Origin: a virus
Lineage: Duplodnaviria > Heunggongvirae > Uroviricota > Caudoviricetes
DNA length: 29,353 nt
IMG/VR virus record: IMGVR_UViG_2778261069_000009
Reading direction: 5' to 3' (one strand)
Shown piece by piece: positions 11,066 through 29,353 of the stretch. The position numbers and the translations under genes were made by a program. Below the pieces are notes generated by a model that searched no databases, had not been told where the DNA came from, and saw nothing but the letters and a program-made list of their open reading frames with translations. Each line of letters starts with the position of its first letter. Position 1 is the stretch's first letter.

Positions 11066-11067
11066 GT

Positions 11068-11391
11068 ATGCTTCTGACAATGGAAGAGATTAAAGCCCAA
11101 CTCCGGCTGGATGAGGATTTCGATGCTGATGACCGCCATCTGCAACTGCTGGCCTGTGCGGCGCAAAAGCGGACGGAAACGTATCTGAACCGGAAGCTCT
11201 ATGCACCGGATGAATCCATTCCGGACAGCGATCCGGACGGGCTGCACCTGCCGGATGATATTCGTCTGGGGATGCTGATGCTTATCAGCCATTTTTACGA
11301 AAACCGCTCGTCGGTTACGGAAGTGGAGAAACTCGACATGCCGCAGAGTTTTGGCTGGCTTGTCGGCCCGTACAGGTACTTTCCGCAATGA
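11068..11391 (+). CDS. head-tail connector protein (gp6-like)
   Basis: 107 aa starting MLLTMEEIKAQLRLDEDFDADD, characteristic of this family; position after the capsid gene. Confidence 0.7.
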   Translation: MLLTMEEIKAQLRLDEDFDADDRHLQLLACAAQKRTETYLNRKLYAPDESIPDSDPDGLHLPDDIRLGMLMLISHFYENRSSVTEVEKLDMPQSFGWLVGPYRYFPQ

Positions 11392-12836: not shown

Positions 12837-12844
12837 GAATCTTC

Positions 12845-13015
12845 ATGTTTGTGAAACCTGTTAAAGGGCGGTCAGTTCCTGACCCTGCCCGCGGCGACCT
12901 TTTGCCCGCCGAGGGGCGAAATGTTGATGAGAACAACTACTGGCTGCGCCGTGAAGCCGCGGGTGATATCCGGCGCGTGAATAAAAAGGTGAACACCGAT
13001 GACGATAAGCTTTAA
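12845..13015 (+). CDS. possible small ORF (56 aa) before the sheath gene
   Basis: ATG 12845 to TAA 13013-13015, MFVKPVKGRSVPDPARGDLLPAEG; overlaps the sheath start by 17 nt; below the ORF-track size cutoff. Confidence 0.3.
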   Translation: MFVKPVKGRSVPDPARGDLLPAEGRNVDENNYWLRREAAGDIRRVNKKVNTDDDKL

Positions 13016-14495: not shown

Positions 14496-14851
14496 TGGCC
14501 CGTATCGGGGGAACCTGTTATTTCAAAATTGACGGTCAGCAGCTATCGCTGACCGGCGGCATTGAGGTGCCCATGAACAGGACGGTCAATGATGACATCA
14601 TCGGCCTGGACGGTTCAGTGGACCGCAAGGAAACTCACCGTGCGCCTTATGTCAAAGGGACCTTCAAGGTGCCGAAGAATTTTCCGGTGAGCAAAATCAC
14701 CTCGTCTGATGAGATGACAATCACTGCCGAGCTGGCGAACGGTCAGGTCTATGTACTGTCGTCTGCCTGGCTGCACGGCGAAGCGAACCATAATGCCGAA
14801 GAAGGCACGGTTGATCTTGAGTTCCACGGTGAAGAAGGGGATTACCAGTAA
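14495..14851 (+). CDS. tail tube protein (Mu M-like)
   Basis: 118 aa directly after the sheath gene. Confidence 0.8.
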   Translation: MARIGGTCYFKIDGQQLSLTGGIEVPMNRTVNDDIIGLDGSVDRKETHRAPYVKGTFKVPKNFPVSKITSSDEMTITAELANGQVYVLSSAWLHGEANHNAEEGTVDLEFHGEEGDYQ

Positions 14852-15120
14852 TGAAAGAGCTTGAGTTAAAGAAACCGATTATTGCTCATGGCGAGACACT
14901 CTCCGTACTGGAGTTTGATGAACCCACCGGGAAGGATGTCCGCGAGCTGGGGTATCCCTACCAGATGAATCAGGATGAGTCCGTCAGACTTCTGGCGCAT
15001 GTGGTGTCGAAATACATTGTGCGGCTGGCGAAAGTGCCGCAAAGCTCTGTCGACCAGATGTCTCCGGCAGACCTGAATGCAGCGGCGTGGCTTGTGGCCG
15101 GTTTTTTCCTCCAGGCCTGA
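14851..15120 (+). CDS. tail assembly chaperone (short, G-like form)
   Basis: 89-aa ORF between the tube and tape measure genes; slippery site near its 3' end. Confidence 0.7.
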   Translation: MKELELKKPIIAHGETLSVLEFDEPTGKDVRELGYPYQMNQDESVRLLAHVVSKYIVRLAKVPQSSVDQMSPADLNAAAWLVAGFFLQA

Positions 15121-15269
15121 CGGCTGAATACCTCACTGATCGCTTCTTTGACTGCGCCAGCTACTGGCGCATTAATCCCTTCGAATTGCTGAATATGCCG
15201 ATCAGTGAAATTCCCTTGCTGGTCAGTCAGGCAAACAGGATAGAGCAGGAGAAACGCACACATGGCTGA
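15102..15269 (+). CDS. -1 frame extension of the tail assembly chaperone (GT-like product)
   Basis: T_TTT_TTC heptamer at 15102-15108 in the zero frame of the chaperone; the -1 frame stays open to 15269 and overlaps the tape measure start. Confidence 0.55.
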   Translation, partial: FFPPGLTAEYLTDRFFDCASYWRINPFELLNMPISEIPLLVSQANRIEQEKRTHG

Positions 15270-17097
15270 ATTTGAGCTTAAGGCGTTGATCACCGGTGTC
15301 GACAGGCTTTCTCCCGCGCTGTCGAAAATGCAAAAGAAAATCCGGGGATTTAAACGCCAGGCGGAAGAAGCGTCACAGGGTGGGCTGGCGCTTGGTGGCG
15401 GACTGGCAGCGGGTCTGACGCTTTCCCTGAAATCTTATGCCGATCAGGAAAACGCCGCCACCGGGCTGAAAGTCGCCATGATGGATGCGAACGGCGAGGT
15501 TGGAAAGAGCTTTCAGGACATCAATAAACTGGCTATTGGTCTGGGTAACCAGCTACCCGGTACAACGGCTGATTTCCAGAACATGATGCAGATGCTGGTG
15601 CGTCAGGGGATCCCGGCAGAAAACATTCTGGGTGGTGTGGGTAAAGCGACAGCTTATCTTGCGGTACAACTGAAAAAAACACCGGAAGCGGCTGCTGAGT
15701 TTGCTGCAAAGATGCAGGATGCTACCGGAACGGCGTCAGAAGACATGATGGGGCTGTTCGACACTATCCAGAAGGCGTTTTATCTGGGCGTTGACGATAC
15801 CAACATGTTGTCCTTCTTCACTAAAACCAGTTCTGTTCTGAAGATGGTGAATAAGGACGGTCTTCAGGCTGCACAGAGCCTTGCCCCTATCAGCGTCATG
15901 ATGGATCAGATGGGGATGAATGGGGAGTCGGCAGGTAATGCCCTGCGAAAAGTTATCCAGTCCGGATTAAGCGTTAAGAAAATCAGGGACGTCAATAAAG
16001 TCATGGCCCGCCAGAAACTCGGGGTGCAGCTCGATTTTACTGACAGCAAAGGGAGTTTTGGCGGTCTTGATAACATGTTTAAGCAACTGGCAAAGCTGCG
16101 AAAACTGACCGACGTTAAGCGAACAGGTGTACTTAAGGCAATATTTGGTGATGATGCCGAAACCCTTCAGGTGGTCAATGCCCTGATCGATAAAGGAAAG
16201 GATGGTTACGATCAGATCCAGCAGAAGATGAATAAACAGGCCAGCCTGAATAAACGTGTTCAGGCACAGCTTGGTACGCTGTCCAACCTGTGGGAGGCAA
16301 TGACGGGGACCGCAACTAACGGTCTTGCAGCTATTGGCGGCGCATTTTCTGGTGACGCTAAAAATATCACGCAATGGCTGGGGGAGTTGGGGGAAAAATT
16401 CACGAAGTTTGCGGATGAAAATCCCCGGGTTATTCGCGGCGTCGTCGGGCTTGCTGCCGGTCTTGCGATTCTGAAACTGGGATTGATGGGCGTGGGCAGT
16501 GCCATCAGTATTGTCAGCAGGATCATGTCGATGACGCCGATTGGCATGATTGCGACGGCGATAGCCCTGGCTGCGGGATTAATTATCACTAACTGGGATG
16601 TTGTCGGACCTTATTTTAAGAAACTCTGGGAAACCATTGGTCCTTATTTTGAGGCTGGCTGGGAACTTCTGAAGAAGGTTTTTGCCTGGTCGCCGCTGGG
16701 GATGGTAATCAATAACTGGGGACCGGTTGTTAAGTGGTTTCAGGATATGTGGGACAAGCTGAAGCCAATTATTGAGTGGTTTACCGACAGTTCCGGTGAC
16801 ACGGTCGATGCCATTAACTCTGCGCAGTGGGGCGCGGGTGCTTATGATGCTTATGGGACGGGAATACCGGCGCGGGGATACACACCTTATCCGGCGGTGG
16901 ATCCGGCTCAGTCAAACAACGCCTCCGATGCCACAGGCTCGAATCCCTTCATGATTAACAAAGCTTCTGCGCCAAAAGTTGATGGTGAGATCAAGGTCTC
17001 TTTTGTGAATTCGCCTCCGGGGATGCGGGTTATGGAAACGCGATCCAGCGGTTTTGATGTCAGCCATGATGTTGGCTATACGCGCTTTGGCAGGTAA
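15262..17097 (+). CDS. tail tape measure protein
   Basis: 611 aa; N-terminal helical region and a Gly/Ala-rich hydrophobic middle (GLAAGLAILKLGLMGVGSAISIV); position after the chaperone pair. Confidence 0.85.
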   Translation: MAEFELKALITGVDRLSPALSKMQKKIRGFKRQAEEASQGGLALGGGLAAGLTLSLKSYADQENAATGLKVAMMDANGEVGKSFQDINKLAIGLGNQLPGTTADFQNMMQMLVRQGIPAENILGGVGKATAYLAVQLKKTPEAAAEFAAKMQDATGTASEDMMGLFDTIQKAFYLGVDDTNMLSFFTKTSSVLKMVNKDGLQAAQSLAPISVMMDQMGMNGESAGNALRKVIQSGLSVKKIRDVNKVMARQKLGVQLDFTDSKGSFGGLDNMFKQLAKLRKLTDVKRTGVLKAIFGDDAETLQVVNALIDKGKDGYDQIQQKMNKQASLNKRVQAQLGTLSNLWEAMTGTATNGLAAIGGAFSGDAKNITQWLGELGEKFTKFADENPRVIRGVVGLAAGLAILKLGLMGVGSAISIVSRIMSMTPIGMIATAIALAAGLIITNWDVVGPYFKKLWETIGPYFEAGWELLKKVFAWSPLGMVINNWGPVVKWFQDMWDKLKPIIEWFTDSSGDTVDAINSAQWGAGAYDAYGTGIPARGYTPYPAVDPAQSNNASDATGSNPFMINKASAPKVDGEIKVSFVNSPPGMRVMETRSSGFDVSHDVGYTRFGR

Positions 17098-17157
17098 TGA
17101 AAAATTAATCTGTTAATGAGTCCCACTCCGGTGGGATTTTTTATGTACGGAGTTTAT

Positions 17158-18486
17158 ATGACGTGGAAAGACAGACTTCAGGACGCGTCATTTCGCGGTG
17201 TGCCGTTTAAGGTTGAAGAAGAAAGTGCGGGAACCGGCCGTCGTGTGGAAACACACGAATATCCGAACCGCGACAAACCCTATACCGAAGACCTGGGGAA
17301 AATCACTTTCCGCCCGTCCATCACAGCTTATGTGGTGGGAGATGACTGCTTTGACCAGCGCGATCGCCTGATTGACGCGCTGAATAAACCCGGTCCCGGC
17401 ACGCTTGTCCATCCGACTTACGGTGAGCTGAAAGTCTGTGTTGACGGGGAAGTTCGGGTCAGCACATCGAAGAGTGAAGGGCGTATTGTCCGCTTTGACC
17501 TGAAGTTTGTCGAAGCGGGAGAACTCTCTTACCCCACTTCAGGTGCGGCGACGGCGCAGACGCTGATGTCATCCTGTTCTGCACTGGATGACTGCATCAG
17601 TGACAGCTTCAGTGGTTTCAGTATCGATGGCGTGGCAGATTTTGTGCAGAACGACGTCGTCGGTAATGCCAGCACAATGCTTGGGTATGTTTCTGATGCG
17701 ATGAAAGTGGTGGATTCTGCCGTATCGGATGCCGCCAGGCTGTTGCAGGGGGATATCTCGGTACTTCTGCCGCCGCCATCGTCAGGCAAAAATTTCGTTG
17801 AGCAGGTGCAGAAAATGTGGCGTACCGGGAAACGCCTTTATGGTAACGCCAGCGACCTGGTCACCATAATCAAAACGCTTTCCGGTGTCAGCCTCGGCAG
17901 CGATCTGCAACCGCGCGGCGTCTGGAAAACGGACAGTAAAACCACCGCCACGGCGACGCAGCAGCGTAACGTGGTTGCCAGCACCCTTCGTACGACCGCA
18001 ATCAGCGAAGCGGCGTATGCCGTCACACGATTGCCTGCGCCCACAACTTCCGCGGTGATGCAGAATGCCACAGTGGGGCAGTCAACAACACCCGCGCAGA
18101 GCACCGGCTGGCCTTCTGTCACGCATCCGGCACTGAACAATGCACCGGCGGTGAAAAACACGGTTGACCTGCCAACGTGGGAAGAACTGACCGACATTCG
18201 CGACACACTGAATACGGCAATTGATAAGGAGTTGTCCCGTACAACCAGTGATGCGCTGTTTCTGGCGCTGCGCCGGGTGAAAGCAGATCTGAATGCGGAT
18301 ATCAACACGCGCCTTGAACAGTCTGCACGGATCATTCAGCGCACGCCGGATGAGGTTTTACCCGCGCTGGTGCTGGCGGCGACCTGGTTTGATAACGCGG
18401 CGCGTGACGCGGACATTATCCGGCGTAATGCCATTACGCATCCCGGCTTTGTGCCGGTGATCCCTCTGAAGGTGCCAGTGCAATGA
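17158..18486 (+). CDS. DNA circularization protein (Mu N-like)
   Basis: Start placed at ATG 17158 (GGAG 5 nt upstream); MTWKDRLQDASFRGVPF is typical of this family; position after the tape measure. The ORF-track start at 17116 and an ATG at 17143 are alternatives. Confidence 0.75.
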   Translation: MTWKDRLQDASFRGVPFKVEEESAGTGRRVETHEYPNRDKPYTEDLGKITFRPSITAYVVGDDCFDQRDRLIDALNKPGPGTLVHPTYGELKVCVDGEVRVSTSKSEGRIVRFDLKFVEAGELSYPTSGAATAQTLMSSCSALDDCISDSFSGFSIDGVADFVQNDVVGNASTMLGYVSDAMKVVDSAVSDAARLLQGDISVLLPPPSSGKNFVEQVQKMWRTGKRLYGNASDLVTIIKTLSGVSLGSDLQPRGVWKTDSKTTATATQQRNVVASTLRTTAISEAAYAVTRLPAPTTSAVMQNATVGQSTTPAQSTGWPSVTHPALNNAPAVKNTVDLPTWEELTDIRDTLNTAIDKELSRTTSDALFLALRRVKADLNADINTRLEQSARIIQRTPDEVLPALVLAATWFDNAARDADIIRRNAITHPGFVPVIPLKVPVQ

Positions 18487-19562
18487 ACGATAACGTCACG
18501 CTACGGGTAAATGGCCGGGAGTGGAATGGCTGGACATCGGTGCGCATCGGTGCCGGTGTTGAACGACTGGCGCGGGATTTCAGTGTGGAGATCACCCGCC
18601 AGTGGCCGGGAGATGAGGGTATTACCACGCTTCAGTCGCGCATTAAAAACGGTTCAAAAGTGGAGGTGCTGATTGGTGATGAGCTGGTGATCACCGGCTG
18701 GGTGGAGGCGACGCCCGTTCGTTACGATGCCCGTTCGGTCAGCACCGGTATTGCCGGACGTAGTCTGACCGCTGACCTGATTGACTGTGCAGCCGAACCG
18801 ACACAGTTTAACGGACGATCGCTGGTACAGATTGCGCAGGCGCTTGCTGCGCCTTTCGGCATTGAGGTGGTGAACAGCGGTGCGCCGTCGGGTGTTATTC
18901 CTGATGTCCAGCCTGATCACGGTGAAACGGTGATTGAGGTGATCAACAAAATACTCGGTCAGCAGCAGGCGCTGGCTTACGACGACCCGCACGGCAGGCT
19001 GGTGATTGGTGGTATTGGCTCAACGCGGGCACATACCGCGCTGGTACTTGGGGAAAACATCCTTTCCTGCGATACGGAGAAGAGTATCCGGGAGCGGTTT
19101 TCTGTTTACCAGGTGGCGGGGCAGCGTGCCGGAAACGACGATGATTTCGGTGAGGCCACCACCACCGCGCTGCGGGCCCGCACAGAGGACGCATTTATTG
19201 CCCGTTACCGTCCGATGTATATCAGGCAGACAGGGCAGGCTACGGGGGCAGGCTGTATTGCGCGTGCTGACTTTGAAGCCCGGCAACGGGCGGCGCGGAC
19301 GGATGAAACCACCTATGTGGTGCAGGGCTGGCGACAGGGTAACGGTACGCTGTGGCAACCCAACCAGCGGGTGATTGTCTTTGATCCGGTCTGTGGTTTT
19401 GACAATACCGAACTGCTTGTTTCGGAAGTCACGTTTACTCAGGACCAGAACGGCACCCTGACGGAAATCCGTGTCGGCCCGCCTGATGCTTATCTGCCTG
19501 AACCTGAAGACCCCGGCGCGCGGAAAAAGAAAAAAGCCAGAGTACAGGAGGACCCGTTCTGA
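18483..19562 (+). CDS. baseplate hub protein (Mu P-like, late control D family)
   Basis: 359 aa; ATGA overlap with the upstream gene; order as in Mu N-P. Confidence 0.75.
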   Translation: MNDNVTLRVNGREWNGWTSVRIGAGVERLARDFSVEITRQWPGDEGITTLQSRIKNGSKVEVLIGDELVITGWVEATPVRYDARSVSTGIAGRSLTADLIDCAAEPTQFNGRSLVQIAQALAAPFGIEVVNSGAPSGVIPDVQPDHGETVIEVINKILGQQQALAYDDPHGRLVIGGIGSTRAHTALVLGENILSCDTEKSIRERFSVYQVAGQRAGNDDDFGEATTTALRARTEDAFIARYRPMYIRQTGQATGAGCIARADFEARQRAARTDETTYVVQGWRQGNGTLWQPNQRVIVFDPVCGFDNTELLVSEVTFTQDQNGTLTEIRVGPPDAYLPEPEDPGARKKKKARVQEDPF

Positions 19563-20110
19563 TGAGGACGATTGAAGCCATGCAGCGACAACTTCTCGGC
19601 CTGATTGGGCGGGCAGTGGTGAAAAGCATCAGTGCCGCCACGAAATGTCAGACCGTGGATGTGTCCCTGATTGCCGGTGAACCCAAAGCCGGGGTTGAAC
19701 ATCTTGAACCCTACGGTTTTACCGCAAGGGCAAACAGCGGTGCGGAAGCGGTGGTGTTGTTTCCGGATGGCGACCGTTCTCATGCGGTGGTTGTTACGGT
19801 GTCGGACCGGCGCTACCGCCTGAAAGGGCTGCAGACGGGTGAGGTGGCGGTCTATGACGATCAGGGGCAGTCCGTGACGCTGACCCGGGAGGGGATCGTG
19901 GTGGACGGTGCAGGTAAAACGATCACGTTTCGCAATTCACCTAAAGCACGTTTTGAAATGGACCTGGAAGTGACAGGACAGGTGAAAGACCTGTGCGACT
20001 CCGGCGGCACCACCATGTCAGCGATGCGGCTTGCCTATAACGGGCATCGTCACAGAGAGAACGGTCAGGGCAGTAACACCGACAAACCGGATAAAGCGAT
20101 GGAGGCATGA
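19562..20110 (+). CDS. baseplate assembly protein V / spike (Mu gp45-like)
   Basis: 182 aa; position. Confidence 0.7.
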   Translation: MRTIEAMQRQLLGLIGRAVVKSISAATKCQTVDVSLIAGEPKAGVEHLEPYGFTARANSGAEAVVLFPDGDRSHAVVVTVSDRRYRLKGLQTGEVAVYDDQGQSVTLTREGIVVDGAGKTITFRNSPKARFEMDLEVTGQVKDLCDSGGTTMSAMRLAYNGHRHRENGQGSNTDKPDKAMEA

Positions 20111-20535
20111 TGGAACTGTGGCTGACGGTGAACGGTAAACGCACCTGCGCCAGCGCACCGCTGGATCCGCTGACCCGCGCCGTGGTGATTTCCCTGTTTA
20201 CCTGGCGGCGGGCGGAGCCTGATGACAACGCCGACGTCCCGATGGGATGGTGGGGGGATACTTGGCCTGCGGTACAGAATGACCGTTACGGCTCCCGGCT
20301 GTGGCTGCTTCAGCGCAGCAAACTGACCAATCAGCTGGTGCTGACGGTAAGGGGGTATATCCGCGAATGCCTGCAATGGATGATTGATGACGGCGTGGTG
20401 TCCCGTATTGATCTGGATATCCGCCGCACCGGGATTAATGAACTGGGTAACAGTATCACTCTCTGGCGTCGTGACGGACCGGTAATGATTTCTTTTGATG
20501 ATCTGTGGAGTGCGATAACGCATGGCGGACAGTGA
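20107..20535 (+). CDS. baseplate protein (gp46-like)
   Basis: 142 aa; overlapping starts and stops on both sides. Confidence 0.65.
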   Translation: MMELWLTVNGKRTCASAPLDPLTRAVVISLFTWRRAEPDDNADVPMGWWGDTWPAVQNDRYGSRLWLLQRSKLTNQLVLTVRGYIRECLQWMIDDGVVSRIDLDIRRTGINELGNSITLWRRDGPVMISFDDLWSAITHGGQ

Positions 20536-21580
20536 ATTTCAGCGCCCGACGCTGGCAGAAAATATCAGTATGCTCCGTAACGATTTATTCGCCAGGCTGG
20601 ACGTCAGCGACACGCTCCGGCGCATGGATGAAGACGTGCGGGCAAAGGTGTATGCGGCGGCGCTGCATACAGTTTACGGATACATCGATTATCTGGCAAT
20701 GAACATGCTGCCTGACCTGTGCGATGAGTCCTGGCTGGCGCGACATGCTGCGATGAAACGGTGTCCGCGCAAGGGGGCCACGGCTGCCAGCGGGTATATG
20801 CGCTGGGAAGGTGTCAGCGATGGCCTGAAGGTGACCGCCGGGAGTGTTATTCAGCGCGATGACCTGGTTCAGTACACGGCAACTGCCGATGCAACCAGCT
20901 CCGGTGGTGTCCTGCGCGTGCCGATCGCCTGCTCAAGTGCAGGCGCGGTCGGTAACGCTGACGACGGTACGGCATTAATCCTGGTCACGCCGGTTAATGG
21001 TCTGCCGTCTTCCGGCGTGGCAGATACCCTGACAGGTGGATTTGATACTGAAGAGCTGGAAACGTGGCGCGCCCGCGTCATTGAGCGGTATTACTGGACG
21101 CCTCAGGGCGGGGCTGACGGGGACTATGTCGTCTGGGCTAAAGAAGTGCCCGGCATTACCCGCGCATGGACATACCGTCACTGGATGGGAACGGGAACTG
21201 TCGGTGTGATGATTGCCAGCAGTGACCTGATTAATCCCATTCCGGAAGAATCAACGGAAACGGCAGCAAGACAACATATCGGGCCACTGGCCCCGGTGGC
21301 AGGCTCTGATTTGTATGTATTCAGGCCGGTGGCACATACGGTGGATTTTCATATCCGTGTGACGCCGGACACACCGGAAATACGGGCTGCCATTACCGCG
21401 GAGTTGCGTTCGTTCCTGCTGCGTGATGGTTATCCGCAGGGAGAACTGAAGGTATCGCGTATCAGTGAGGCGATTTCCGGTGCGAACGGGGAATACAGCC
21501 ATCAGTTGCTTGCACCGGCAGACAATATCTCCATTGCAAAAAATGAACTGGCGGTACTGGGGACGATTTCATGGACGTGA
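20522..21580 (+). CDS. baseplate J-like protein (gp47-like)
   Basis: 352 aa; order matches the e14 / Mu baseplate gene series. Confidence 0.8.
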
Positions 21581-22155
21581 CAAACGATGATTACATCCGT
21601 CTGTTGTCGGCACTGTTGCCCCCCGGTCCGGCGTGGTCAGCCAGCGATCCGGCGATTGCCGGTGCGGCACCGTCATTAACCCGCGTTCATCAGCGTGCGG
21701 ATGCCCTGATGCGGGAGCTGGATCCGCGCACCACCAATGAACTGATAAACCGCTGGGAGCGTCTGTGCGGTCTGCCGGATGAATGTATTCCCGCAGGGAC
21801 ACAGACCCTTCGCCAGCGTCAGCAACGGCTGGATGCGAAGGTTAACCTGGCGGGCGGCATCAACGAGGATTTTTATCTTGCACAGCTTGCTGCCCTGGGC
21901 AGACCGGATGCCACCATCACGCGATACGACAAAAGCACGTTCACCTGCTCATCGGCCTGTACTGACGCTGTGAATGCGCCGGAATGGCGGTATTACTGGC
22001 AGGTCAACATGCCAGCCGCCGCCAACACCACCTGGATGACATGTGGCGATCCCTGTGATTCCGCACTGCGTATCTGGGGTGACACCGTTGTCGAGTGTGT
22101 GCTTAACAAACTCTGCCCGTCGCATACCTACGTAATTTTTAAATATCCGGAGTAA
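21571..22155 (+). CDS. tail protein gp48-like (YmfQ-like)
   Basis: 194 aa; N-terminus [18 protein letters not shown] resembles the YmfQ family as remembered; Cys-rich C-terminus. Confidence 0.7.
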
Positions 22156-22158
22156 TCC

Positions 22159-22941
22159 ATGCATCGTATAGACACGAAAACCGCGCAGAAGGATAAGTTC
22201 GGCGCGGGTAAGAACGGTTTTACCCGTGGTAACCCCCAGACCGGCACGCCTGCCACCGATCTGGATGATGACTACTTTGACATGTTGCAGGAGGAGCTTT
22301 GCAGCGTGGTGGAGGCATCCGGTGCCAGCCTGGAGAAGGGGCGGCACGATCAGTTGCTTACCGCACTTCGCGCGCTGCTGTTAAGCCGCAATAATCCGTT
22401 TGGCGATATCAAATCGGATGGCACGGTGAAAACGGCTCTCGAAAACCTTGGTTTGGGAGAAGGTTCGGCATTACCCGTTGGAGTGCCTGTTCCGTGGCCT
22501 TCTGCCACTCCGCCAACAGGCTGGCTGAAATGCAACGGTGCGGCATTTTCTGCTGAAGAATACCCGGAACTGGCAAAGGCTTATCCGGCAAATAAATTAC
22601 CTGATTTACGCGGTGAGTTTATTCGTGGCTGGGATGACGGGCGTGGAGCTGACAGTGGTCGGGGATTATTAAGCTTTCAAAAAGCCACTCTGGTTGAAAG
22701 TTTTGGTCTGGTCAGATCACCAACCACTGGCTCTTATCGTCTGGTTACCAGACCGACAGAAACTGTTTCTGATAATACGTCTAACTATATGACGACTGAT
22801 TATGATTCCCGTGAAGGTCTATATTCCCCTGCAACAGCATACCCCTCTATCGAATTGCCACCAACTGGAGCAGGCGCAGGGGCTGGTTTTAGGGTTCGAC
22901 CAAGGAATATTGCATTTAACTATATTGTGAGGGCTGCATAA
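22159..22941 (+). CDS. tail fibre protein: constant N-terminus (to about codon 96) joined to the variable C-terminal segment Sv
   Basis: 260 aa; the left crossover site lies inside the gene at the codons for ENLGLGE; the C-terminal part is lower in GC. Confidence 0.8.
22436..22461. repeat. left crossover site of the invertible segment (26-bp, gix/pix-like)
   Basis: CTCTCGAAAACCTTGGTTTGGGAGAA; its inner 14 nt TTGGTTTGGGAGAA are the exact reverse complement of 24296-24309; the 26-mer is itself an imperfect palindrome. Confidence 0.65.
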
Positions 22942-23543
22942 TGGATAACGCCATATTAAATAGCGAGATTATCGCCACCAAAGCAGGGAATATTACAGTA
23001 TATAACTATGATAGTGAAACCCGGGAATATATTTCCACTTCAAATGAATATCTTGCTGTGGGTGTCGGTATTCCTGCATGTTCCTGTTTAGATGCACCAG
23101 GCACATATAAGGCTGGTTATGCTATCTGCCGTTCGATGGATTTAAACTCATGGGAATATGTGCCAGACCATCGCGGTGAAATCGTCTATAACACCGAAAC
23201 GGGAGACGCCAAAGAAATCACAACTCCGGGTGATTACCCCGAAAAAACAACCACTATCGCCCCGTTAACGCCATACGATAAATGGGATGGTGAGAAATGG
23301 GTGACGGATACCGAGGCACAGCATAGCGCCGCAGTAGACGCGGCAGAAGCACAACGTCAGTCACTGATTGATACTGCAATGGCTTCCATTAGTCTGATTC
23401 AACTGAAATCGCAGGCCGGACGGAAGTTGACGCAGGCAGAAACAACCCGACTTAACGCCGTGCTGGATTACATTGACGCGGTGACGGTAACAGATACCAG
23501 CACCGCGCCGGATGTCATCTGGCCTGAACTGCCGGAGGCGTAG
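22941..23543 (+). CDS. tail fibre assembly protein (Tfa)
   Basis: 200 aa; ATAATG overlap with the fibre gene; C-terminus DTSTAPDVIWPELPEA is shared with the convergent Tfa'. Confidence 0.8.
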   Translation: MDNAILNSEIIATKAGNITVYNYDSETREYISTSNEYLAVGVGIPACSCLDAPGTYKAGYAICRSMDLNSWEYVPDHRGEIVYNTETGDAKEITTPGDYPEKTTTIAPLTPYDKWDGEKWVTDTEAQHSAAVDAAEAQRQSLIDTAMASISLIQLKSQAGRKLTQAETTRLNAVLDYIDAVTVTDTSTAPDVIWPELPEA

Positions 23544-23958
23544 GCCATTCAATATCTGGAGCACTGGAAGTATCGACCAGTTCCAGTGCGTCCAGATAAT
23601 CCAGCCACAAATTATATTGCGCCAGTTCCTCACCTTTCAGACGACCAATAGCGGCTTTACCGGGCCATTGCTTACTGTTCATGTGTTCGTTGGCCTGATT
23701 AAGCAATAATTTTCTTTCTGATTCTGCCTGTTGAATAAGTTCTTCATGTGATGGTTGAGGTATTTCAGCCCATGTGGGAAAACCATTTACCCCTGCAACT
23801 CGGATTTTCCCTTGTGGCGGTTCCGCTATATATTTTACAAAAATGTTATCAGGAATATCTAATGCATCAGCGGGCCATGTTCCATTTACTTCATAAGTAT
23901 TTTTTAAATTAACAGCATAAAATGCATTTTCCGAAGGGGAATAAATATATTGATTCAT
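23515..23958 (-). CDS. alternative tail fibre assembly protein (Tfa')
   Basis: 147 aa; C-terminus DTSSAPDIEWPTPP parallels Tfa; 3' ends of the two Tfa genes overlap by 29 bp. Confidence 0.75.
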   Translation of the reverse strand: MNQYIYSPSENAFYAVNLKNTYEVNGTWPADALDIPDNIFVKYIAEPPQGKIRVAGVNGFPTWAEIPQPSHEELIQQAESERKLLLNQANEHMNSKQWPGKAAIGRLKGEELAQYNLWLDYLDALELVDTSSAPDIEWPTPPAVQAR

Positions 23959-23959
23959 A

Positions 23960-24310
23960 TTATCTTCCTATTGCGATAATCATAGTTCCATACAAACCAT
24001 TTCCGGTTGATACTTTTAAGGTTACTGATGTCCTTGTTGTCGTGTACCCCATAAGTTTAAAGGTCGGAGCAGCCGTTAATGTGCCATCAGACCATAAGGC
24101 ACTAACAGCCAGTGCACCTGAAGGAAATGCAATAGGGAAATTACCAGTAGTTCCGTTAGTGTCCGCCCCATAAACATTCATCGAAAACATTTGAACAATA
24201 TGACCACTTGGTAACTGAAACCAGTTTTTGCCAGATGGAAATGCAGACATATCTGGTTTCTGATTTTCTCCTGTTCCCACATTCCGTTTTGCCGCTTCTC
24301 CCAAACCAAC
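23960..24310 (-). CDS. alternative tail fibre C-terminal segment (Sv'), no start codon of its own
   Basis: The minus-strand frame is open from the right crossover site; the codons for VGLGE at the site match the plus-strand LGLGE codons at the left site, so inversion fuses this segment in frame to the constant N-terminus. The ORF-track start at 24349 lies outside the segment and is an artefact. Confidence 0.7.
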   Translation of the reverse strand, partial: VGLGEAAKRNVGTGENQKPDMSAFPSGKNWFQLPSGHIVQMFSMNVYGADTNGTTGNFPIAFPSGALAVSALWSDGTLTAAPTFKLMGYTTTRTSVTLKVSTGNGLYGTMIIAIGR

Positions 24311-24321
24311 GTTTATGAAAA
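24296..24321. repeat. right crossover site of the invertible segment (26-bp, gix/pix-like)
   Basis: TTCTCCCAAACCAACGTTTATGAAAA; inverted relative to 22436-22461 with 20 of 26 matches and an identical inner 14-mer. Confidence 0.65.
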
Positions 24322-24376
24322 TGCAGAAATAACGGCTAACTGGCATCATCTCTGGTTTTTATTCAGAGGGATGATC

Positions 24377-24931
24377 ATGCTTATTGGCTATGTACGCGTG
24401 TCAACAAATGACCAGAACACCGATTTGCAACGTAATGCACTGAACTGCGCGGGATGTGAGCGGATTTTTGAGGATAAAATCAGTGGAACTAAGTCCGACA
24501 GACCAGGACTGAAAAAACTGCTCAGGACATTATTGGCAGGTGACACGCTGGTGGTCTGGAAACTGGACCGACTGGGGCGCAGTATGCGGCATCTTGTCGT
24601 GCTGGTGGAGGAGTTGCGCGAACGAGGCATTAACTTTCGTAGTCTGACGGATTCAATTGATACCAGTACCCCAATGGGGCGCTTTTTTTTTCATGTGATG
24701 GGTGCCCTGGCTGAAATGGAGCGTGAACTGATTGTTGAACGAACAAAAGCTGGACTGGAAGCTGCTCGCGCACAGGGACGAATTGGTGGACGTCGTCCCA
24801 AACTTACACCAGAACAATGGGAACAGGCCGGACGATTAATTGCATCAGGAGTTCCTCGCCAGAAGGTGGCGATCATCTATGATGTTGGTGTGTCAACTTT
24901 GTATAAGATGTTTCCTGCAGGGGATAAATAA
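24377..24931 (+). CDS. pin: serine DNA invertase (Pin/Gin/Hin family)
   Basis: MLIGYVRVSTNDQNTDLQ with the catalytic Ser, GDTLVVWKLDRLGRS, RFFFHVMGALAEMEREL and a C-terminal HTH; near-identical to e14 Pin as remembered. Start placed at ATG 24377 because the AGAGGG RBS abuts the first ATG at 24371. Confidence 0.95.
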   Translation: MLIGYVRVSTNDQNTDLQRNALNCAGCERIFEDKISGTKSDRPGLKKLLRTLLAGDTLVVWKLDRLGRSMRHLVVLVEELRERGINFRSLTDSIDTSTPMGRFFFHVMGALAEMERELIVERTKAGLEAARAQGRIGGRRPKLTPEQWEQAGRLIASGVPRQKVAIIYDVGVSTLYKMFPAGDK

Positions 24932-25037
24932 AGTTAAAGTCACTTTGTGTACAAAAGAAAATAAAACAACAGCAACTTGTTGCAATTTTATCAATAAAAG
25001 TAGTATTGTCGTAAAAAATTGATTAAAGATTAATATT

Positions 25038-25871
25038 ATGCATGTTTTTGATAATAATGGAATTGAACTGAAAGCTGAGTGTTTGATAGGTGAAGAGGAT
25101 GGTGTTTATGGTCTAATCCTTGAGTCGTGGGGGCCGGGTGACAGAAACAAAGATTACAATATCGCTCTTGATTATATCATTGAACGGTTGGTTGATTCTG
25201 GTGTATCCCAAGTCGTAGTATATCTGGCGTCATCATCAGTCAGAAAACATATGCATTCTTTGGATGAAAGAAAAATCCATCCTGGTGAATATTTTACTTT
25301 GATTGGTAATAGCCCCCGCGATATACGCTTGAAGATGTGTGGTTATCAGGCTTATTTTAGTCGTACGGGGAGAAAGGAAATTCCTTCCGGCAATAGAACG
25401 AAACGAATATTGATAAATGTTCCAGGTATTTATAGTGACAGTTTTTGGGTGTCTATAATACGTGGAGAACTATCAGAGCTTTCTCAGCCTACAGATGATG
25501 AATCGCTTCTGAATATGAGGGTTAGTAAATTAATTAAGAAAACGTTGAGTCAGCCCGAGGGCTCCAGGAAACCAGTTGAGGTAGAAAGACTACAAAAAGT
25601 TTATGTCCGAGATCCGATGGTAAAAGCTTGGATTTTACAGCAAAGTAAAGGTATATGTGAAAACTGTGGTAAAAATGCTCCGTTTTATTTAAATGATGGA
25701 AGCCCATACTTGGAAGTGCATCATGTAATTCCCCTGTCTTCAGGTGGTGCTGATACAACAGATAACTGTGTTGCCCTTTGTCCGAATTGCCATAGAGAAT
25801 TGCACTATAGTAAAAATGCAAAAGAACTAATCGAGATGCTTTACGTTAATATAAATCGATTACAGAAATAA
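25038..25871 (+). CDS. mcrA: McrA, modified-cytosine-specific (type IV) restriction endonuclease with C-terminal HNH
   Basis: 277 aa beginning MHVFDNNGIELKAEC; C-terminal CENCG...HHVIPLSSGGADTTDNCVALCPNCH HNH motif; matches remembered E. coli K-12 McrA over essentially the whole length; AT-rich gene at the prophage end as in e14. Confidence 0.93.
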   Translation: MHVFDNNGIELKAECLIGEEDGVYGLILESWGPGDRNKDYNIALDYIIERLVDSGVSQVVVYLASSSVRKHMHSLDERKIHPGEYFTLIGNSPRDIRLKMCGYQAYFSRTGRKEIPSGNRTKRILINVPGIYSDSFWVSIIRGELSELSQPTDDESLLNMRVSKLIKKTLSQPEGSRKPVEVERLQKVYVRDPMVKAWILQQSKGICENCGKNAPFYLNDGSPYLEVHHVIPLSSGGADTTDNCVALCPNCHRELHYSKNAKELIEMLYVNINRLQK

Positions 25872-26104
25872 AATTGTTTATTAAAGTCACATTTAAGACG
25901 TAATACCCTACAGGGTAAAAATTTTCTCTGATCTTAACTTCTGCAAATGTTAACTGCTATTTTTATGCTAAAAATGGTTATCAAAACTCAAAAACACATG
26001 TTGATAATCAATGAGTTATGGAAATGCTAAGAGCTAATGAGTTATATGCAAATTAGTAAAATTATGCTGCTATGTCAAATAGTTACGATTTAGTTATCTA
26101 ACTA

Positions 26105-26269
26105 ATGCTGCGCCATATGGGCTGGACTGAAGCTGCAGACCTGATTGTTAAAGGTATGGAAGGTGCAATCAACGCCAAGACCGTAACCTATGACTTCGAA
26201 CGTCTGATGGACGACGCTAAGCTGCTGAAATGCTCAGAGTTTGGTGATGCGATCATCGAAAATATGTAA
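26105..26269 (+). pseudogene. icd: icd 3'-terminal remnant (54 codons) marking attR of the prophage
   Basis: Translates to [54 protein letters not shown], the C-terminus of isocitrate dehydrogenase; no upstream icd body (an in-frame TAA sits at 26099-26101); AT-rich phage DNA ends about 26103. Confidence 0.85.
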
Positions 26270-26292
26270 TTACCACATGTGTTAAATATTAT

Positions 26293-26320
26293 AACGGGCG
26301 TATAACACGCCCGTTGTTTT
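26293..26320 (+). terminator. rho-independent terminator of icd
   Basis: AACGGGCG (26293-26300), loop TATAACA, CGCCCGTT (26308-26315), then a T-run, 24 nt after the icd stop. Confidence 0.65.
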
Positions 26321-26403
26321 ATGATGATGTAAAATCTTCCCCAAAACTTTACCCAAAACTGGCTATTTTCTATGCTGTTTTGATATCTACGATAACCCGG
26401 TAT

Positions 26404-27336
26404 TTACAGAGTTTCCTCAAAGAATGGAGCTAATACTGAAATCGCTTCAGCCACATAGGCTTTGCCGTCATAGAGGTCCATATGGTTAGCGCCTTCAACA
26501 ATGTGATAGCGTTTATCCTGACTTGATGCTCGATCGTACAGGTCGTCACTCATCCATTTACTTCCTGCCAGACTGCCCGCCACAATCTGCATCGGCTGAG
26601 TCAGGTACACTTCCGCCATATGGTAAGCATCATAGGTAATCATCTGGTTAAGGCTGCGCAAAGTAGCGTAACCCGGTGCTGTTGGATACTGCGCGCGAGA
26701 GGTGTGGTAATACTCCCAGGCCTGACGCAGTTCTTCGTTCGGCGCATCGGCCTCCTTCATTGGCGCCAGTGGCATAATGGCGTATTCTCCGCTGCTAATA
26801 TCGCTGGTTCGGGCGTTTGAGCCAGCTTCAATGTGTGGCAGAGCATCAATAGATTTCACATTGTTTTCCCAACCATTGCGGAACATCGAACCAATATTGA
26901 CCGCACTAACGGTACCGATGGCCTTGATGCGGCGATCCTGAATTGCAGCATTGGCTGTATATCCTGCACCGGCACAAATTCCCATCGCACCAATTCGGGC
27001 ATTGTCGACATAAGAAAGTGTTGTCAGGTAATCAATTACGGCACTGACGTCTTCAGTACGAATGTATGGGTTTTCTAACTGACGCGGCTCGCCGCCACTT
27101 TCACCTTGATAAGAGGCGTCATAAGCGATGGTGACAAATCCTTTTTCCGCCAGTTTTTCGGCATAGGTTCCGGCTGTTTGTTCTTTAACGCCTCCACCGG
27201 GGTGAGATACCACAATTGCCGGATACTGACGGGTTTCATCAAATTGGGGAGGGAAATAGATCACAGCAGACAAAGAGATGGTTGGATTATTGCTGTTAGT
27301 GAAGCTGACTTTATTATTCATCATTCCGTTCCTCAT
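26404..27336 (-). CDS. alpha/beta hydrolase with Cys nucleophile (dienelactone hydrolase-like)
   Basis: 310 aa; HPGGG oxyanion-type motif and GICAGAG nucleophile elbow with Cys in place of Ser; divergent from a LysR regulator. Confidence 0.75.
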   Translation of the reverse strand: MRNGMMNNKVSFTNSNNPTISLSAVIYFPPQFDETRQYPAIVVSHPGGGVKEQTAGTYAEKLAEKGFVTIAYDASYQGESGGEPRQLENPYIRTEDVSAVIDYLTTLSYVDNARIGAMGICAGAGYTANAAIQDRRIKAIGTVSAVNIGSMFRNGWENNVKSIDALPHIEAGSNARTSDISSGEYAIMPLAPMKEADAPNEELRQAWEYYHTSRAQYPTAPGYATLRSLNQMITYDAYHMAEVYLTQPMQIVAGSLAGSKWMSDDLYDRASSQDKRYHIVEGANHMDLYDGKAYVAEAISVLAPFFEETL

Positions 27337-27363
27337 GGCGTTGCCGGTTCGTTTTAACGGCTG

Positions 27364-27437
27364 GTGATATCACTATAGATATTGATCATTAAGTTGATTA
27401 GACCCAAAATCATGATTGGACCTATCATTTAAATGAT
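27364..27437. promoter_or_regulatory. divergent promoter region with candidate LysR-type operator palindromes
   Basis: GTGATATCAC (27364-27373), ATCATTAAGTTGAT (27385-27398) and the perfect 14-bp palindrome ATCATTTAAATGAT (27424-27437) lie between the divergent hydrolase and LysR genes. Confidence 0.4.
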
Positions 27438-27461
27438 TAATAGATTGTATAGAGATACAGA

Positions 27462-28361
27462 ATGAAACGTGAAGAAATCGCTGATCTGATGGCATTCGTC
27501 GTCGTTGCAGAGGAGCGTAGCTTCACTCGCGCAGCAGTCCGCCTGGGCATGGCGCAGTCAGCTTTAAGCCAGATAGTGCGCCGTATAGAAGAACGATTGG
27601 GATTGCGGCTTCTGACGCGAACCACGCGCAGTGTTGTACCAACTGAAGCGGGCGAGCATCTTTTGTCTGTTCTTGGCCCTATGCTGCATGACATAGATTC
27701 TGCCCTGTCATCCCTGAGTGAGCTGCAGAATCGCCCATCCGGGACAATACGTATTACTACTGTAGAACATGCAGCAAAAACGATATTGTTACCAGCCATG
27801 CGCACATTCCTGAAATCACACCCTGAAATTGATATTCAGCTTATCATTGATTATGGTTTGACTGATGTCGTTTCTGAGCGTTTTGATGCAGGCGTCCGTC
27901 TGGGTGGGGAGATGGATAAAGATATGATCGCCATTCGAATCGGGCCAGATATACCAATGGCTATTGTTGGCTCACCGGATTATTTTTCCCGCCGAAGTGT
28001 TCCAACGTCAGTGTCACAATTAATAGATCATCAGGCCATTAATTTGTATCTTCCCACATCGGGTACAGCAAATCGCTGGAGATTAATACGCGGTGGACGC
28101 GAAGTTCGTGTTCGCATGGAAGGTCAGCTTTTACTGAATACGATAGACCTGATCATTGATGCTGCAATTGATGGGCACGGATTAGCGTATCTACCTCATG
28201 ATCAGGTTGAGCGGGCGATTAAAGAAAAAAAACTGATACGTGTTCTGGATAAATTCACACCAGATTTACCCGGTTATCACCTGTACTATCCGCATCGTCG
28301 ACATGCTGGCTCGGCATTCTCCTTATTTATAGATAGGCTGAAGTATAAAGGCGCTGTTTAG
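27462..28361 (+). CDS. LysR-family transcriptional regulator
   Basis: 299 aa; N-terminal HTH (FVVVAEERSFTRAAVRLGMAQSALSQIVRRIEERLG) and a C-terminal co-inducer-type domain. Confidence 0.85.
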   Translation: MKREEIADLMAFVVVAEERSFTRAAVRLGMAQSALSQIVRRIEERLGLRLLTRTTRSVVPTEAGEHLLSVLGPMLHDIDSALSSLSELQNRPSGTIRITTVEHAAKTILLPAMRTFLKSHPEIDIQLIIDYGLTDVVSERFDAGVRLGGEMDKDMIAIRIGPDIPMAIVGSPDYFSRRSVPTSVSQLIDHQAINLYLPTSGTANRWRLIRGGREVRVRMEGQLLLNTIDLIIDAAIDGHGLAYLPHDQVERAIKEKKLIRVLDKFTPDLPGYHLYYPHRRHAGSAFSLFIDRLKYKGAV

Positions 28362-28945
28362 TTTTGCTTGATGATACGTTGATTTTATTTTTCCCTTAAC
28401 GTGTTCACAGTTCCTTTCGACGTTTTAGTTATTTTTTCTTCTTCATACAATGGCGGCAATTACTTTCTTTTATTTTTATTATCGTGGATGTTAATACCAG
28501 AACTTCTGACCCTACGATGCATGTTTTTTGTATATTATCTGTATCAGGCAAAGAGTGGCGCAAATTGTGGATGATGGGGGAGTATAACCCGGAAGAGTTT
28601 ACATTTTTGAACGGTATTTTTTGTAATGTAAAGGAAAATCTGTGTCGGAATGATCGCTATTTGGGTGCAGATGGCAGAAGGAGTGGGGAAATAAATAATA
28701 ATTCTACGATGATATTATTTGGTTGTATCGGTTAGTGATGAACTCAGGTCGCCAGATGCTGCACCATCTCCGGCGTGGATGATGCTTTCAGTCTCAGACT
28801 TACTGACATCGCTCAATGGGATTCTTTCGTCCTCAGTGAGCGCATCGAAACCATAACTAACCAATTGAATAGCCTGCAAGAGTATGTGAGATCACAGTGT
28901 TCATATTAGAAAAGTCTTATCATAAGATTTTTTATATGGATGCAT

Positions 28946-29353
28946 TATGTCTCAATACGCTCGTGCCGCTTTAATTGCTTATAATTTGGTTGCCGATAAA
29001 TCAATGTCTCCTCGTGAGGCTTGGGACGCCGCTGTTGCTAAGGTTACAAAAAGCGAATCCTCAAGAAAGAAGGGATGCCCAAGGGCAACGTTTCTCGCCT
29101 TGGCGGATTGCGGTTATCTGAAGAATGTAGAACCACAGTATGGGGAGAAAAAAGGCGGTAAGTTGTACCAAAGGGTGGTTGAAGTTGCGAATCTGATTCT
29201 TGATTTACCCGGAATTAGCAAAGCTGTGAACCGCCCCGGGTTTCCTGGAGAGTGTTTTATCTGTGAACTCAGGCTGCCAGATCATCGTTTCCGATGGAAG
29301 CATAATAAGCTTTTTCTGCTTCTGCCGGAGGAGTATGGCCCAGCCTTTCCAGC
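28946..29353 (+). CDS. hypothetical protein, open to the window end
   Basis: ATG 28946 preceded by an in-frame TAA; at least 136 codons without a stop (MSQYARAALIAYNLVADKSMSPREAWDAAV); its last part overlaps a convergent minus-strand frame, so the true extent is uncertain. Confidence 0.35.
29269..29353 (-). CDS. 3' end of a minus-strand gene entering from beyond the window
   Basis: Minus frame reads LERLGHTPPAEAEKAYYASIGNDDLAA then TGA (stop at 29271-29269); only 27 codons visible. Confidence 0.3.
   Translation of the reverse strand, partial: LERLGHTPPAEAEKAYYASIGNDDLAA

Follow-up and report, generated by a model that had tools for sequence, protein, structure and literature searches.

Escherichia coli K-12 carries a defective prophage, e14, whose P segment (pinE, stfP/ycfK, tfaP, tfaE, stfE) was described by Plasterk and van de Putte in 1985 and analysed by Mehta et al. 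in 2004 (both as cited in PMC4272514). Its two orientations coexist in clonal cultures (PMC4272514, by sequencing and PCR; PMC12529663). In K-12, overproduction of PinE results in more inversion and deletion of pinE leaves the segment locked, and other Pin-type invertases encoded elsewhere in the E. coli genome can also flip the segment in trans (PMC12529663). Phages Mu and P1 have comparable switches, the G segment (gin, gix, S/U, S'/U') and the C segment (cin, cix, S/U), respectively. The Hin/hix system of Salmonella flagellar phase variation belongs to the same invertase subfamily and also uses 26-bp sites; its 65-bp Fis enhancer is contained in the 5' end of hin, some 100 bp away from hixL (PMC3798978). 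Finally, sites of the same family and fibre-tip cassettes are found in the Min-type tail-fibre shufflons (p15B type).

Here we analysed a stretch of viral DNA of 29,353 nucleotides (IMG/VR record IMGVR_UViG_2778261069_000009), to which we refer as the window. The region studied (Table 1) very probably belongs to a prophage of the e14 family and is its P segment, which Pin would invert to switch the distal half of a myovirus tail fibre between two states without loss of the reading frame. The sequence-only reading of this DNA had proposed that the locus follows the logic of the Mu G, P1 C and e14 P segments. In support of this, the locus has a Gin/Cin-type serine invertase outside the segment, crossover sites with the gix/cix core, and sites identical to those of K-12. 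The relationship goes beyond merely similar logic: the locus is the e14 P segment itself, with diverged cassette alleles. Note that the e14 P segment was already known, and the window is a real but ordinary case of it. Its main value lies in the correct annotation: an e14-type P segment whose orientation is opposite to that of the MG1655 reference record, and in which the 129-aa and 260-aa ORFs are two states of one fibre gene and not a pseudogene plus a separate gene.

Table 1. Features of the invertible tail-fibre locus (positions are those of the window)
Feature	Position	Strand	Details
Sc, constant 5' part of the tail-fibre gene, ~96 codons	22159-22447	+	Outside the invertible segment; ORF 22159-22941
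pixL, left crossover site	22436-22461	+	26 bp; central TT at 22448-22449; identical to K-12 pixL
Invertible segment	22449-24308		1860 bp, centre to centre of the sites; strand of the K-12 match switches inside both sites
Variable fibre C-terminus, StfE type, now joined to Sc	22450-22941	+	Pfam Collar, E 1.7e-14, residues 108-155
Tfa chaperone (200 aa, TfaE type) of the cassette now joined to Sc	22941-23543	+	Pfam Caudo_TAP, E 5.5e-31
Second Tfa chaperone, TfaP type, 147 aa, of the unjoined cassette	23515-23958	-	Pfam Caudo_TAP, E 3.4e-33
Alternative variable fibre C-terminus, gp53-like	23960-24349	-	Pfam Gp53-like_C, E 7.6e-09; inside the segment from 24307 inward
pixR, right crossover site	24296-24321	-	26 bp; central AA at 24308-24309 on the + strand; identical to K-12 pixR
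pin, serine DNA invertase, 184 aa	24377-24931	+	Pfam Resolvase E 2e-51, HTH_7 E 4e-14
Predicted recombinational (Fis) enhancer	24395-24466		5' part of pin; homology to the P1 Cin enhancer

Read as 26-mers, the crossover sites are CTCTCGAAAACC TT GGTTTGGGAGAA (pixL) and, in reverse complement, TTTTCATAAACG TT GGTTTGGGAGAA (pixR), and the inner 14-mer TTGGTTTGGGAGAA has the same letters in both. The repeat finder returned a single long inverted repeat between 20500 and 26000 (22443-22462 with 24295-24314; 20 nt, 95% complementary), so that both approaches support the earlier claim of two inverted 26-bp sites with an identical inner 14-mer. Since the centre of pixL is TT and that of pixR is AA, the central dinucleotide is equal when the sites are read in inverted orientation. 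In both sites the dyad symmetry is imperfect, with 9/12 and 8/12 matches between half-sites. An alignment with known sites, also suggested by the sequence-only reading, gives the core AAACC-NN-GGTTT, which is common to gix and cix, and both 26-mers of the window are, letter for letter, the pix sites of MG1655. With the annotated P1 cixL crossover, pixL shares the AAACC-TT-GGTTT core and the same central TT, and the inner half-site of P1, GGTTTAAGAGAA, is near-identical to GGTTTGGGAGAA in the window. No third crossover site, as in Min-type multi-inversion, was found across the 29-kb window; the sole further core match, at 11928, carries 1 mismatch and was rejected as an extra site, being at the chance level. 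With two crossover sites only, the window has two states.

The reading frame is preserved by the exchange, as had been claimed. In the fibre frame pixL encodes ENLGLGE, and exchange at the central TT produces NLGLGE at both resulting junctions. In its present place, and read on the minus strand, pixR encodes INVGLGE. Thus, the earlier statement that both sites encode LGLGE is correct for pixL and for the two junctions after exchange, but not for pixR in place, which gives VGLGE; the first base of the differing V/L codon falls in the outer half-site. In-silico flipping of 22449-24308 generated an uninterrupted 212-aa fibre, compared to the 260-aa fibre of the present orientation, and the frame is unbroken in both states. 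The GC content of the invertible segment is 0.37-0.46, compared to about 0.58 upstream.

Sc lies outside the segment and supplies the promoter-proximal start and the N-terminus to whichever cassette is joined to it, while the segment contains two convergent cassettes, each with a variable fibre part and a tfa gene. This agrees with the proposal that inversion swaps the fibre C-terminus together with its cognate Tfa. In both cassettes the fibre stop overlaps the tfa start, the start of the TfaE-type gene being fused to the fibre stop codon as TAATG. The two tfa genes had been said to overlap at their 3' ends, and indeed they do, 3' end to 3' end over 29 bp; the same 29-bp overlap is present in the RefSeq annotation of K-12, MB06231 and ET979. 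By blastp the two variable fibre parts of the window do not match each other, and their Pfam families differ. The ORF proximal to pin is composed of a short leader outside the segment and of the variable part that is turned towards pin in the given orientation. Its form in the window is a 129-aa ORF (23960-24349): the gp53-like frame stays open across pixR up to an ATGATG at 24344-24349, and the ORF is built like 'StfE2' of K-12.

The degree of similarity to K-12 changes sharply along the locus. Residues 1-105, which include Sc, are 96% identical to the N-terminus of K-12 StfP, and the TfaE-type protein is 89% identical to TfaE. Identity drops to 59% between the collar-type variable part and the stfE ORF of K-12, and to only 31% between the gp53-like part and the variable part of K-12 StfP. 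The TfaP-type protein resembles K-12 TfaP in its C-terminal 78 aa (65% identity), but its N-terminal half has no relation to that protein. The segment measures 1860 bp in the window and 1827 bp in K-12 by the same measure. The domain types and their order are the same, and we read this allele divergence as probable cassette exchange within the e14 family: the receptor-binding cassettes appear to be swapped between strains, with the sites and the invertase nearly constant. Among complete E. coli genomes, the best one has 93-95% identity over the segment; none of the species-representative genomes carry the same fibre.

Outside the segment, the window follows e14 of K-12 in the order ymfQ, fibre, segment, pin, mcrA, icdC, and is colinear with it at 97.5% over 20793-22463 and at 95.4% over 24295-26322 (95% identity for pin-mcrA-icdC). 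The stretch 26105-26323 also matches the 3' end of icd (85%), in agreement with a prophage integrated at icd, and the flanking host DNA is about 96% identical to E. coli. Taken with the genome comparisons above, this makes the source an Escherichia-like strain that those genome sets do not contain. In contrast to the window prophage, e14 of K-12 is without about 12.7 kb of head and tail genes, corresponding to 8133-20793. In the window the segment ends a complete late gene module, with lysis genes, terminase, capsid, sheath, tube and a Mu-type baseplate. The window therefore displays the undeleted late region of an e14-family myovirus, of which K-12 retains the ends only. The early region of the prophage is outside the window. 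McrA matched the PADLOC type IV enzyme model (E 1.9e-200), and a PADLOC scan of the unannotated left-end ORFs gave zero matches.

We propose that the two 26-bp pix sites would be bound by Pin dimers and brought into a synaptic tetramer, together with Fis on an enhancer inside the start of pin. The tetramer would cut both sites at the central TT, rotate by 180 degrees and religate the ends, and the outcome of this exchange would be the inversion of 1860 bp. The fibre gene up to codon ~96, together with its promoter and start codon, is outside the segment, so that each orientation joins this part to one of two unrelated C-termini. In state 1, the current one, the 260-aa fibre ends in a collar-domain receptor-binding part; in state 2, the flipped one, the 212-aa fibre would end in a gp53-like receptor-binding part; and in either state the matching Tfa chaperone gene is directly downstream. 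As in Mu and P1, the two fibres would be expected to confer different host ranges on a still-inducible phage.

An alternative, which we regard as rather unlikely, is that the switch benefits the host: the pin-proximal ORF, with its own translation, would mask outer-membrane receptors, and inversion would be a phase-variable anti-phage defence that replaces the host-range switch or adds to it. In K-12, StfE2 consists of the leader and the StfP variable part, with the gp53-like domain at residues 47-125; its overproduction cuts T2 adsorption, and cells with the inverted segment resist T2 (PMC12529663). The window is in the equivalent state, its ORF has the same build as StfE2, and the window shares its ATGATG leader with K-12, MB06231, ET979 and two further e14-type loci. 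However, the T2 result is not transferable to the window, because its gp53-like part is so different (31% identity) from that of K-12, where, moreover, the effect was seen mainly via plasmid overproduction. In addition, the ATG at 24349 is without a good Shine-Dalgarno, no promoter match was found in that direction in the 21900-25100 scan, and in the related locus L021 the leader is interrupted by stop codons. The S' ORF of Mu too extends a few codons beyond gixR, which suggests that such leaders are a by-product of an open site. Finally, the position of the segment within an apparently complete virion module favours a role on the phage side. Should the 129-aa ORF be expressed alone, for which we see a small chance, it could provide a phase-variable receptor-masking defence with a specificity unlike that of K-12, and one flip would serve both phage and host. 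If the anti-phage receptor mask claim is general, divergent alleles such as those of the window are natural material for specificity tests.

Coming back to the tail-fibre switch, pin is full length, with the catalytic Ser9 in a YVRVSTNDQ motif and an intact HTH domain. This is the build of the Hin/Gin/Cin/Pin class, small serine recombinases whose N-terminal catalytic domain has its nucleophilic serine near residue 9-10 and whose C-terminus forms a helix-turn-helix. It has a GAGGG Shine-Dalgarno 6 nt upstream (an alternative ORF start is at 24371). Over 140 residues the protein can be aligned with Gin and Cin without a gap, and it matches the structures of Mu Gin 3uj3 and 4m6f with E about 1e-95 (best 2.7e-95). 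We infer that Pin is active in the source strain and that it catalyses the exchange at the pix sites, presumably with Fis and supercoiling. A Fis-dependent enhancer had been expected within the 5' part of pin, and a candidate stretch was located there by homology: 56/72 nt (78%) agree with nt 19-90 of cin, which carry the enhancer annotation in the P1 record. In systems of this class the enhancer measures about 65 bp, acts in cis and has a Fis site at either end. The stretch contains G-N13-C 15-mers at 24398-24412 and 24447-24461, which span 64 bp and are about 97 bp from the centre of pixR; both values fit the enhancer described for Hin (PMC3798978), and the stretch is a predicted Fis-binding enhancer. 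Third-codon-position conservation among pin, pinE, gin and cin was 0.38-0.54 in the enhancer stretch (codons 7-30) and 0.35-0.43 in the rest of the gene (codons 31-140). This is not clearly higher, and the test was dropped as evidence because of the small difference and the tiny sample. Scans of 21900-25100 found sigma-70 promoters (7 found, 5.6 expected) and intrinsic terminators (3 found, 3.4 expected) at the chance level, none of them convincingly placed for pin, the fibre operon or the pin-proximal ORF.

Both orientations, to which the sequence-only reading had looked as a sign of inversion, are found at the population level and within the K-12 clone, in addition to the published clonal cultures. 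Among 5426 complete E. coli genomes, and with at least 80% coverage, all four junction types were found: Sc-collar (514), collar-pin (942), Sc-gp53 (7) and gp53-pin (23). ET979 carries the same cassette pair as the window in the flipped state, and 4861 bp of it are colinear (96%) with the window once the latter is flipped in silico. T16R (H38) was rejected as the flipped example, and ET979 used instead, because IS26 cuts its fibre gene after the junction. In the K-12 lineage the two orientations occur at 100% identity, DH1, DH5alpha, W3110-P, AB1157 and some MG1655 isolates being flipped, and C600, J53 and the MG1655 reference unflipped. Both orientations are thus established at three levels: the element family, the cassette pair of the window and the K-12 clone.

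These results bear on the possibility that the segment is a frozen relic, with an invertible anatomy but with Pin or the enhancer inactive in the source strain and the orientation fixed. Pin of the window does differ from K-12 PinE at several residues (e.g. R29 for L, D41 for E, L53 for S), and the enhancer homologues of the two differ at 9/72 nt. Nevertheless, we consider a relic improbable: pin is full length with its Ser9 motif and HTH intact, both 26-bp sites are the proven K-12 sites, close relatives sharing these cassettes occur in either orientation, and, as mentioned, other Pin-type invertases of E. coli can flip the segment in trans (PMC12529663).

In related loci from other Enterobacterales, we counted 77 copies of the core motif in 612 kb, compared to about 2.3 expected. 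An inverted repeat that arose by chance can almost certainly be dismissed, as can inversion through general homologous recombination instead of site-specific exchange. Short inverted repeats are common (16 pairs of at least 12 nt are listed in 5.5 kb), but no other pair in the region is as long or as good as the pix pair. Its 14-mer is present exactly twice in the 29-kb window, once per strand (0.30 matches expected in shuffled sequence with 2 mismatches allowed), and the gix/cix core is in frame in both fibre cassettes. Of the 21 two-site related loci, from other genera, 20 keep inverted pairs whose central dinucleotides agree (17 TT, 3 TC; 1.1-3.5 kb apart). Moreover, RecA-dependent exchange is not efficient with identities as short as 15-20 bp.

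The Mu G segment resembles the e14-type switch of the window in its constant fibre N-terminus, its two convergent tip and chaperone cassettes and its invertase just outside the segment. The likeness extends to the baseplate genes upstream in the window, which are of the Mu type (gp44-48), to the AAACC-NN-GGTTT core of gix, translated as NLGL, and to Gin, which is the closest solved structure to Pin of the window. Mu differs in its central dinucleotide, which is TC, and in its repeats, which are longer and perfect; its G segment is about 3 kb and the constant part 170 aa, its tfa genes have no overlap, and its fibre tips are unrelated to those of the window (no match by blastp). In P1, which shares the site features and the enhancer homology given above, cin occupies the opposite side with respect to the fibre operon, the segment has a length of about 4.2 kb, and the prophage is a plasmid with different virion genes. 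Hin/hix resembles the window in its enhancer arrangement, which is predicted in the window, but Hin flips a promoter and the hin gene is inside the segment, whereas the window swaps coding sequence and pin is outside. The Min-type shufflons are multi-site, compared to the two sites and two states of the window; some of the related loci from other Enterobacterales have 3-4 sites.

Our comparison with the e14 region of E. coli K-12 MG1655 (NC_000913.3) identified the invertible tail-fibre segment as an e14-family prophage P segment, reversed with respect to the MG1655 reference record. The region 20793-22463 is colinear with K-12 jayE-ymfQ and the start of stfP (97.5%), 22443-23670 aligns with stfE-tfaE in reverse orientation, and 24295-26322 is colinear again with pinE-mcrA-icdC (95.4%). 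The assignment follows from the strand switches, which lie within the two crossover sites, and from the 26-mers, both identical to their K-12 counterparts. The sequence-only reading had proposed the same logic as in e14 P; the locus proved to be that segment itself. The system is already known; the present e14 P segment has diverged cassette alleles and non-reference orientation and belongs to a fuller prophage. Identity to K-12 is 96% in the constant 5' part of the fibre gene (Sc), 89% in TfaE, 65% in TfaP (C-terminal half only), 59% in the collar-type variable part and 31% in the gp53-like variable part, and no DNA-level match to K-12 was found for 23670-24295. On these comparisons, the window cassettes are diverged alleles of the K-12 ones.

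Features of the invertible segment and of its surroundings
Feature	Coordinates	Strand	Remarks
Left site (pixL), 26-mer	22436-22461		CTCTCGAAAACC-TT-GGTTTGGGAGAA
Right site (pixR), 26-mer	24296-24321		reverse complement is TTTTCATAAACG-TT-GGTTTGGGAGAA
Fibre ORF, 260 aa	22159-22941	+	Pfam Collar, residues 108-155
tfa, 200 aa	22941-23543	+	Caudo_TAP; start overlaps fibre stop
Convergent tfa, 147 aa	23515-23958	-	Caudo_TAP
Pin-proximal ORF, 129 aa	23960-24349	-	Gp53-like_C
Serine recombinase gene (pin)	24371 or 24377 to 24931	+	Resolvase + HTH_7
McrA-type type IV methyl-directed restriction enzyme	25038-25871	+	adjoins pin; PADLOC E 1.9e-200
icdC, duplicate of icd 3' end	26105-26323		85% identical to K-12 icd
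ORF, 208 aa	3676-4302	-	no match in Pfam or PADLOC
ORF, 117 aa	4346-4699	-	no match in Pfam or PADLOC

Flipping 22449-24308 in silico produced an uninterrupted 212-aa fibre, made of Sc and the gp53-like part, with the 147-aa Tfa directly downstream. This bears out the proposal that inversion keeps the frame while exchanging the fibre C-terminus together with its cognate Tfa. In both cassettes the stop codon of the fibre part and the start of its tfa overlap, and a promoter scan revealed no convincing own promoter for either, so full fibre expression would depend on the junction with Sc. GC content is ~0.58 across the constant structural genes and drops to 0.37-0.46 within the cassettes, as expected of exchanged receptor-binding modules. 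The overlap described for the 3' ends of the two tfa genes measures 29 bp and is annotated in the same way by RefSeq in K-12, MB06231 and ET979. Note that an 18-nt inverted repeat (23462-23479 and 23588-23605, 83% complementary) flanks this overlap because a C-terminal motif common to both chaperones (LDYIDA or LDYLDA, then DTS.APD..WP) is encoded there on opposite strands; a scan found no terminator-like structure above chance at the overlap.

The most serious alternative concerns the biological role of the locus, not its mechanism. Inversion in K-12 creates a pin-proximal ORF, 'StfE2', that consists of a leader and the StfP variable part with its gp53-like domain, and overproduction of StfE2 is reported to block T2 adsorption (2025; PMC12529663). 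The window is in the state equivalent to inverted K-12 and carries a pin-proximal ORF of the same build, and the leader between pixR and pin is kept as MMPF/V...IFINVGLGE in e14-type loci. Against carrying the K-12 result over to this ORF, the gp53-like part shares just 31% identity with that of K-12, the leader lacks a good ribosome-binding site and contains stops in one related locus, and the Mu S' ORF likewise extends a few codons beyond gixR. We consider it improbable that blocking phage adsorption is the main role here. In the related locus (L021, Shigella flexneri SFBU0723, 6218-6293), two stop codons break the leader, so the ORF is not universally open; its outer half-site also differs.

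The interpretation as a Pin-invertible fibre segment is supported, and both orientations, which the sequence-only reading had suggested looking for, were present among E. coli genomes and within the K-12 clone. We built both left and both right junctions and counted them, at a coverage of at least 80%, in 5426 complete E. coli genomes. The window state was represented by Sc joined to the collar part (514 genomes) and by the gp53-like part adjoining pin (23 genomes), and the flipped state by the collar part adjoining pin (942) and by Sc joined to the gp53-like part (7). In strain ET979 this cassette pair is flipped: the strain aligned with the in-silico flipped window as a single 4861-bp block (96%), uninterrupted across pixL, whereas against the unflipped window the alignment broke at the sites and changed strand. 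Moreover, the Sc-StfE junction, which the MG1655 reference lacks, was found at 100% identity over 401 nt in several K-12-clone strains (DH1, DH5alpha, W3110-P, AB1157, EMG2 and several MG1655 isolates), and the reference junction in C600, J53 and others of this clone. Published work agrees: sequencing and PCR of clonal MG1655-derived cultures showed the two orientations side by side (PMC4272514), and in wild-type BW25113 qPCR gives ~30% inverted, overproduction of PinE increases inversion and deletion of pinE locks the segment (PMC12529663). A frozen relic, in which the segment no longer flips, is unlikely. In E. coli T16R (L005, 3410-7171), IS26 cuts the flipped fibre gene (Sc and gp53-like part) shortly past the junction, and beyond it lie bla fragments and CTX-M-55; the e14-type invertible segment of this strain has thus received a resistance island.

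The repeat search and the 26-mer framing confirmed two inverted 26-bp sites with an identical inner 14-mer. The longest inverted repeat within 20500-26000 is 22443-22462 / 24295-24314 (20 nt, 95% complementary); the two sites agree in inner half-site and central dinucleotide, and differ in their outer half-sites. A chance repeat is unlikely, the 14-mer occurring in the 29 kb at just these two places (0.30 expected with two mismatches allowed); no third crossover site was found in the 29-kb window. On alignment, the AAACC-NN-GGTTT core is common to the window sites, gix and cix, the central dinucleotide annotated for crossover in P1 cixL is likewise TT, and the core translates in the fibre frame as N-L-G-L in Mu, P1 and e14. 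The claim that both sites encode LGLGE held for both post-exchange junctions (NLGLGE) but not for the right site in place, which reads N-V-G-L-G-E; the first base of the V codon lies in the outer half-site.

Scanning species-representative genomes with the current fibre gave 79 loci, and in many genera (Pantoea, Erwinia, Xenorhabdus, Photorhabdus, Lonsdalea, Siccibacter, Rosenbergiella and others) homology starts at about residue 90-105, which is at the crossover site. In 612 kb of these loci we counted 77 core motifs, vs ~2.3 expected. Where a locus has exactly two cores, 20 of 21 form inverted pairs, 1.1-3.5 kb apart, with matching central dinucleotides (17 TT, 3 TC); as in the window, the inner half-site is kept and the outer halves diverge. 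Three or four cores fall within a few kb in six loci (L023, L028, L034, L060, L065 and L077), which come from Xenorhabdus, Pantoea allii and Escherichia sp. MOD1-EC7003; L028, for instance, has three direct AAACGTTGGTTT cores ~500 bp apart. This arrangement suggests multi-cassette (Min-type) fibre shufflons.

The catalytic domain of Pin, whose Ser9 lies in YVRVSTNDQ, aligned gap-free with K-12 PinE, Mu Gin and P1 Cin; among solved structures, Gin 3uj3 and 4m6f are closest (E ~1e-95). The search of 5' pin for the expected Fis-dependent enhancer yielded a candidate by homology: 24395-24466 is identical at 56 of 72 positions to the enhancer annotated at nt 19-90 of cin in the P1 record. This predicted Fis enhancer contains two G-N13-C 15-mers (24398-24412 and 24447-24461) that span 64 bp and begin ~97 bp from the pixR centre, fitting the published Hin-type enhancer of 65 bp with a Fis site at both ends, ~100 bp from hixL (PMC3798978); conservation at its synonymous sites was not clearly above that in the rest of the gene.

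Upstream, an apparently complete late module (2330-22155, especially 8133-20793) encodes holin, TerS, TerL, portal, prohead protease, capsid and connectors, then tail terminator, sheath, tube, tape measure, DNA-circulation protein and baseplate proteins of the Mu gp44-48 or gp43-48 type. Of this module, K-12 e14 keeps only 6396-8133 and 20793 onward, with ~12.7 kb lost; it is a deletion remnant of such a myovirus. The two small minus-strand ORFs of the table, of 208 and 117 aa, separate the lysis genes from the terminase genes. Upstream of the lysis genes, two further minus-strand ORFs (1-2038) may be prophage cargo: the product of one is 391 aa long and contains a 37-kD nucleoid-associated protein domain (NA37, E 6e-24), and the other, within 1-900 and open for at least 290 codons, had no Pfam or PADLOC match.

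As in K-12 e14, the McrA gene and, after it, icdC mark the right prophage end (attR). The host flank (26404-29353) carries an alpha/beta hydrolase and a LysR regulator (pgrR), just ~96% identical to E. coli, which makes the source an Escherichia-like strain absent from the genome collections; the best colinear matches of the flank end near 28458. Part of the flank is a multi-copy element, since matches to it were found in 5390 of 5426 genomes, with a median of 3 places per genome. A DUF6979 ORF begins near 28947 and continues past the window end.
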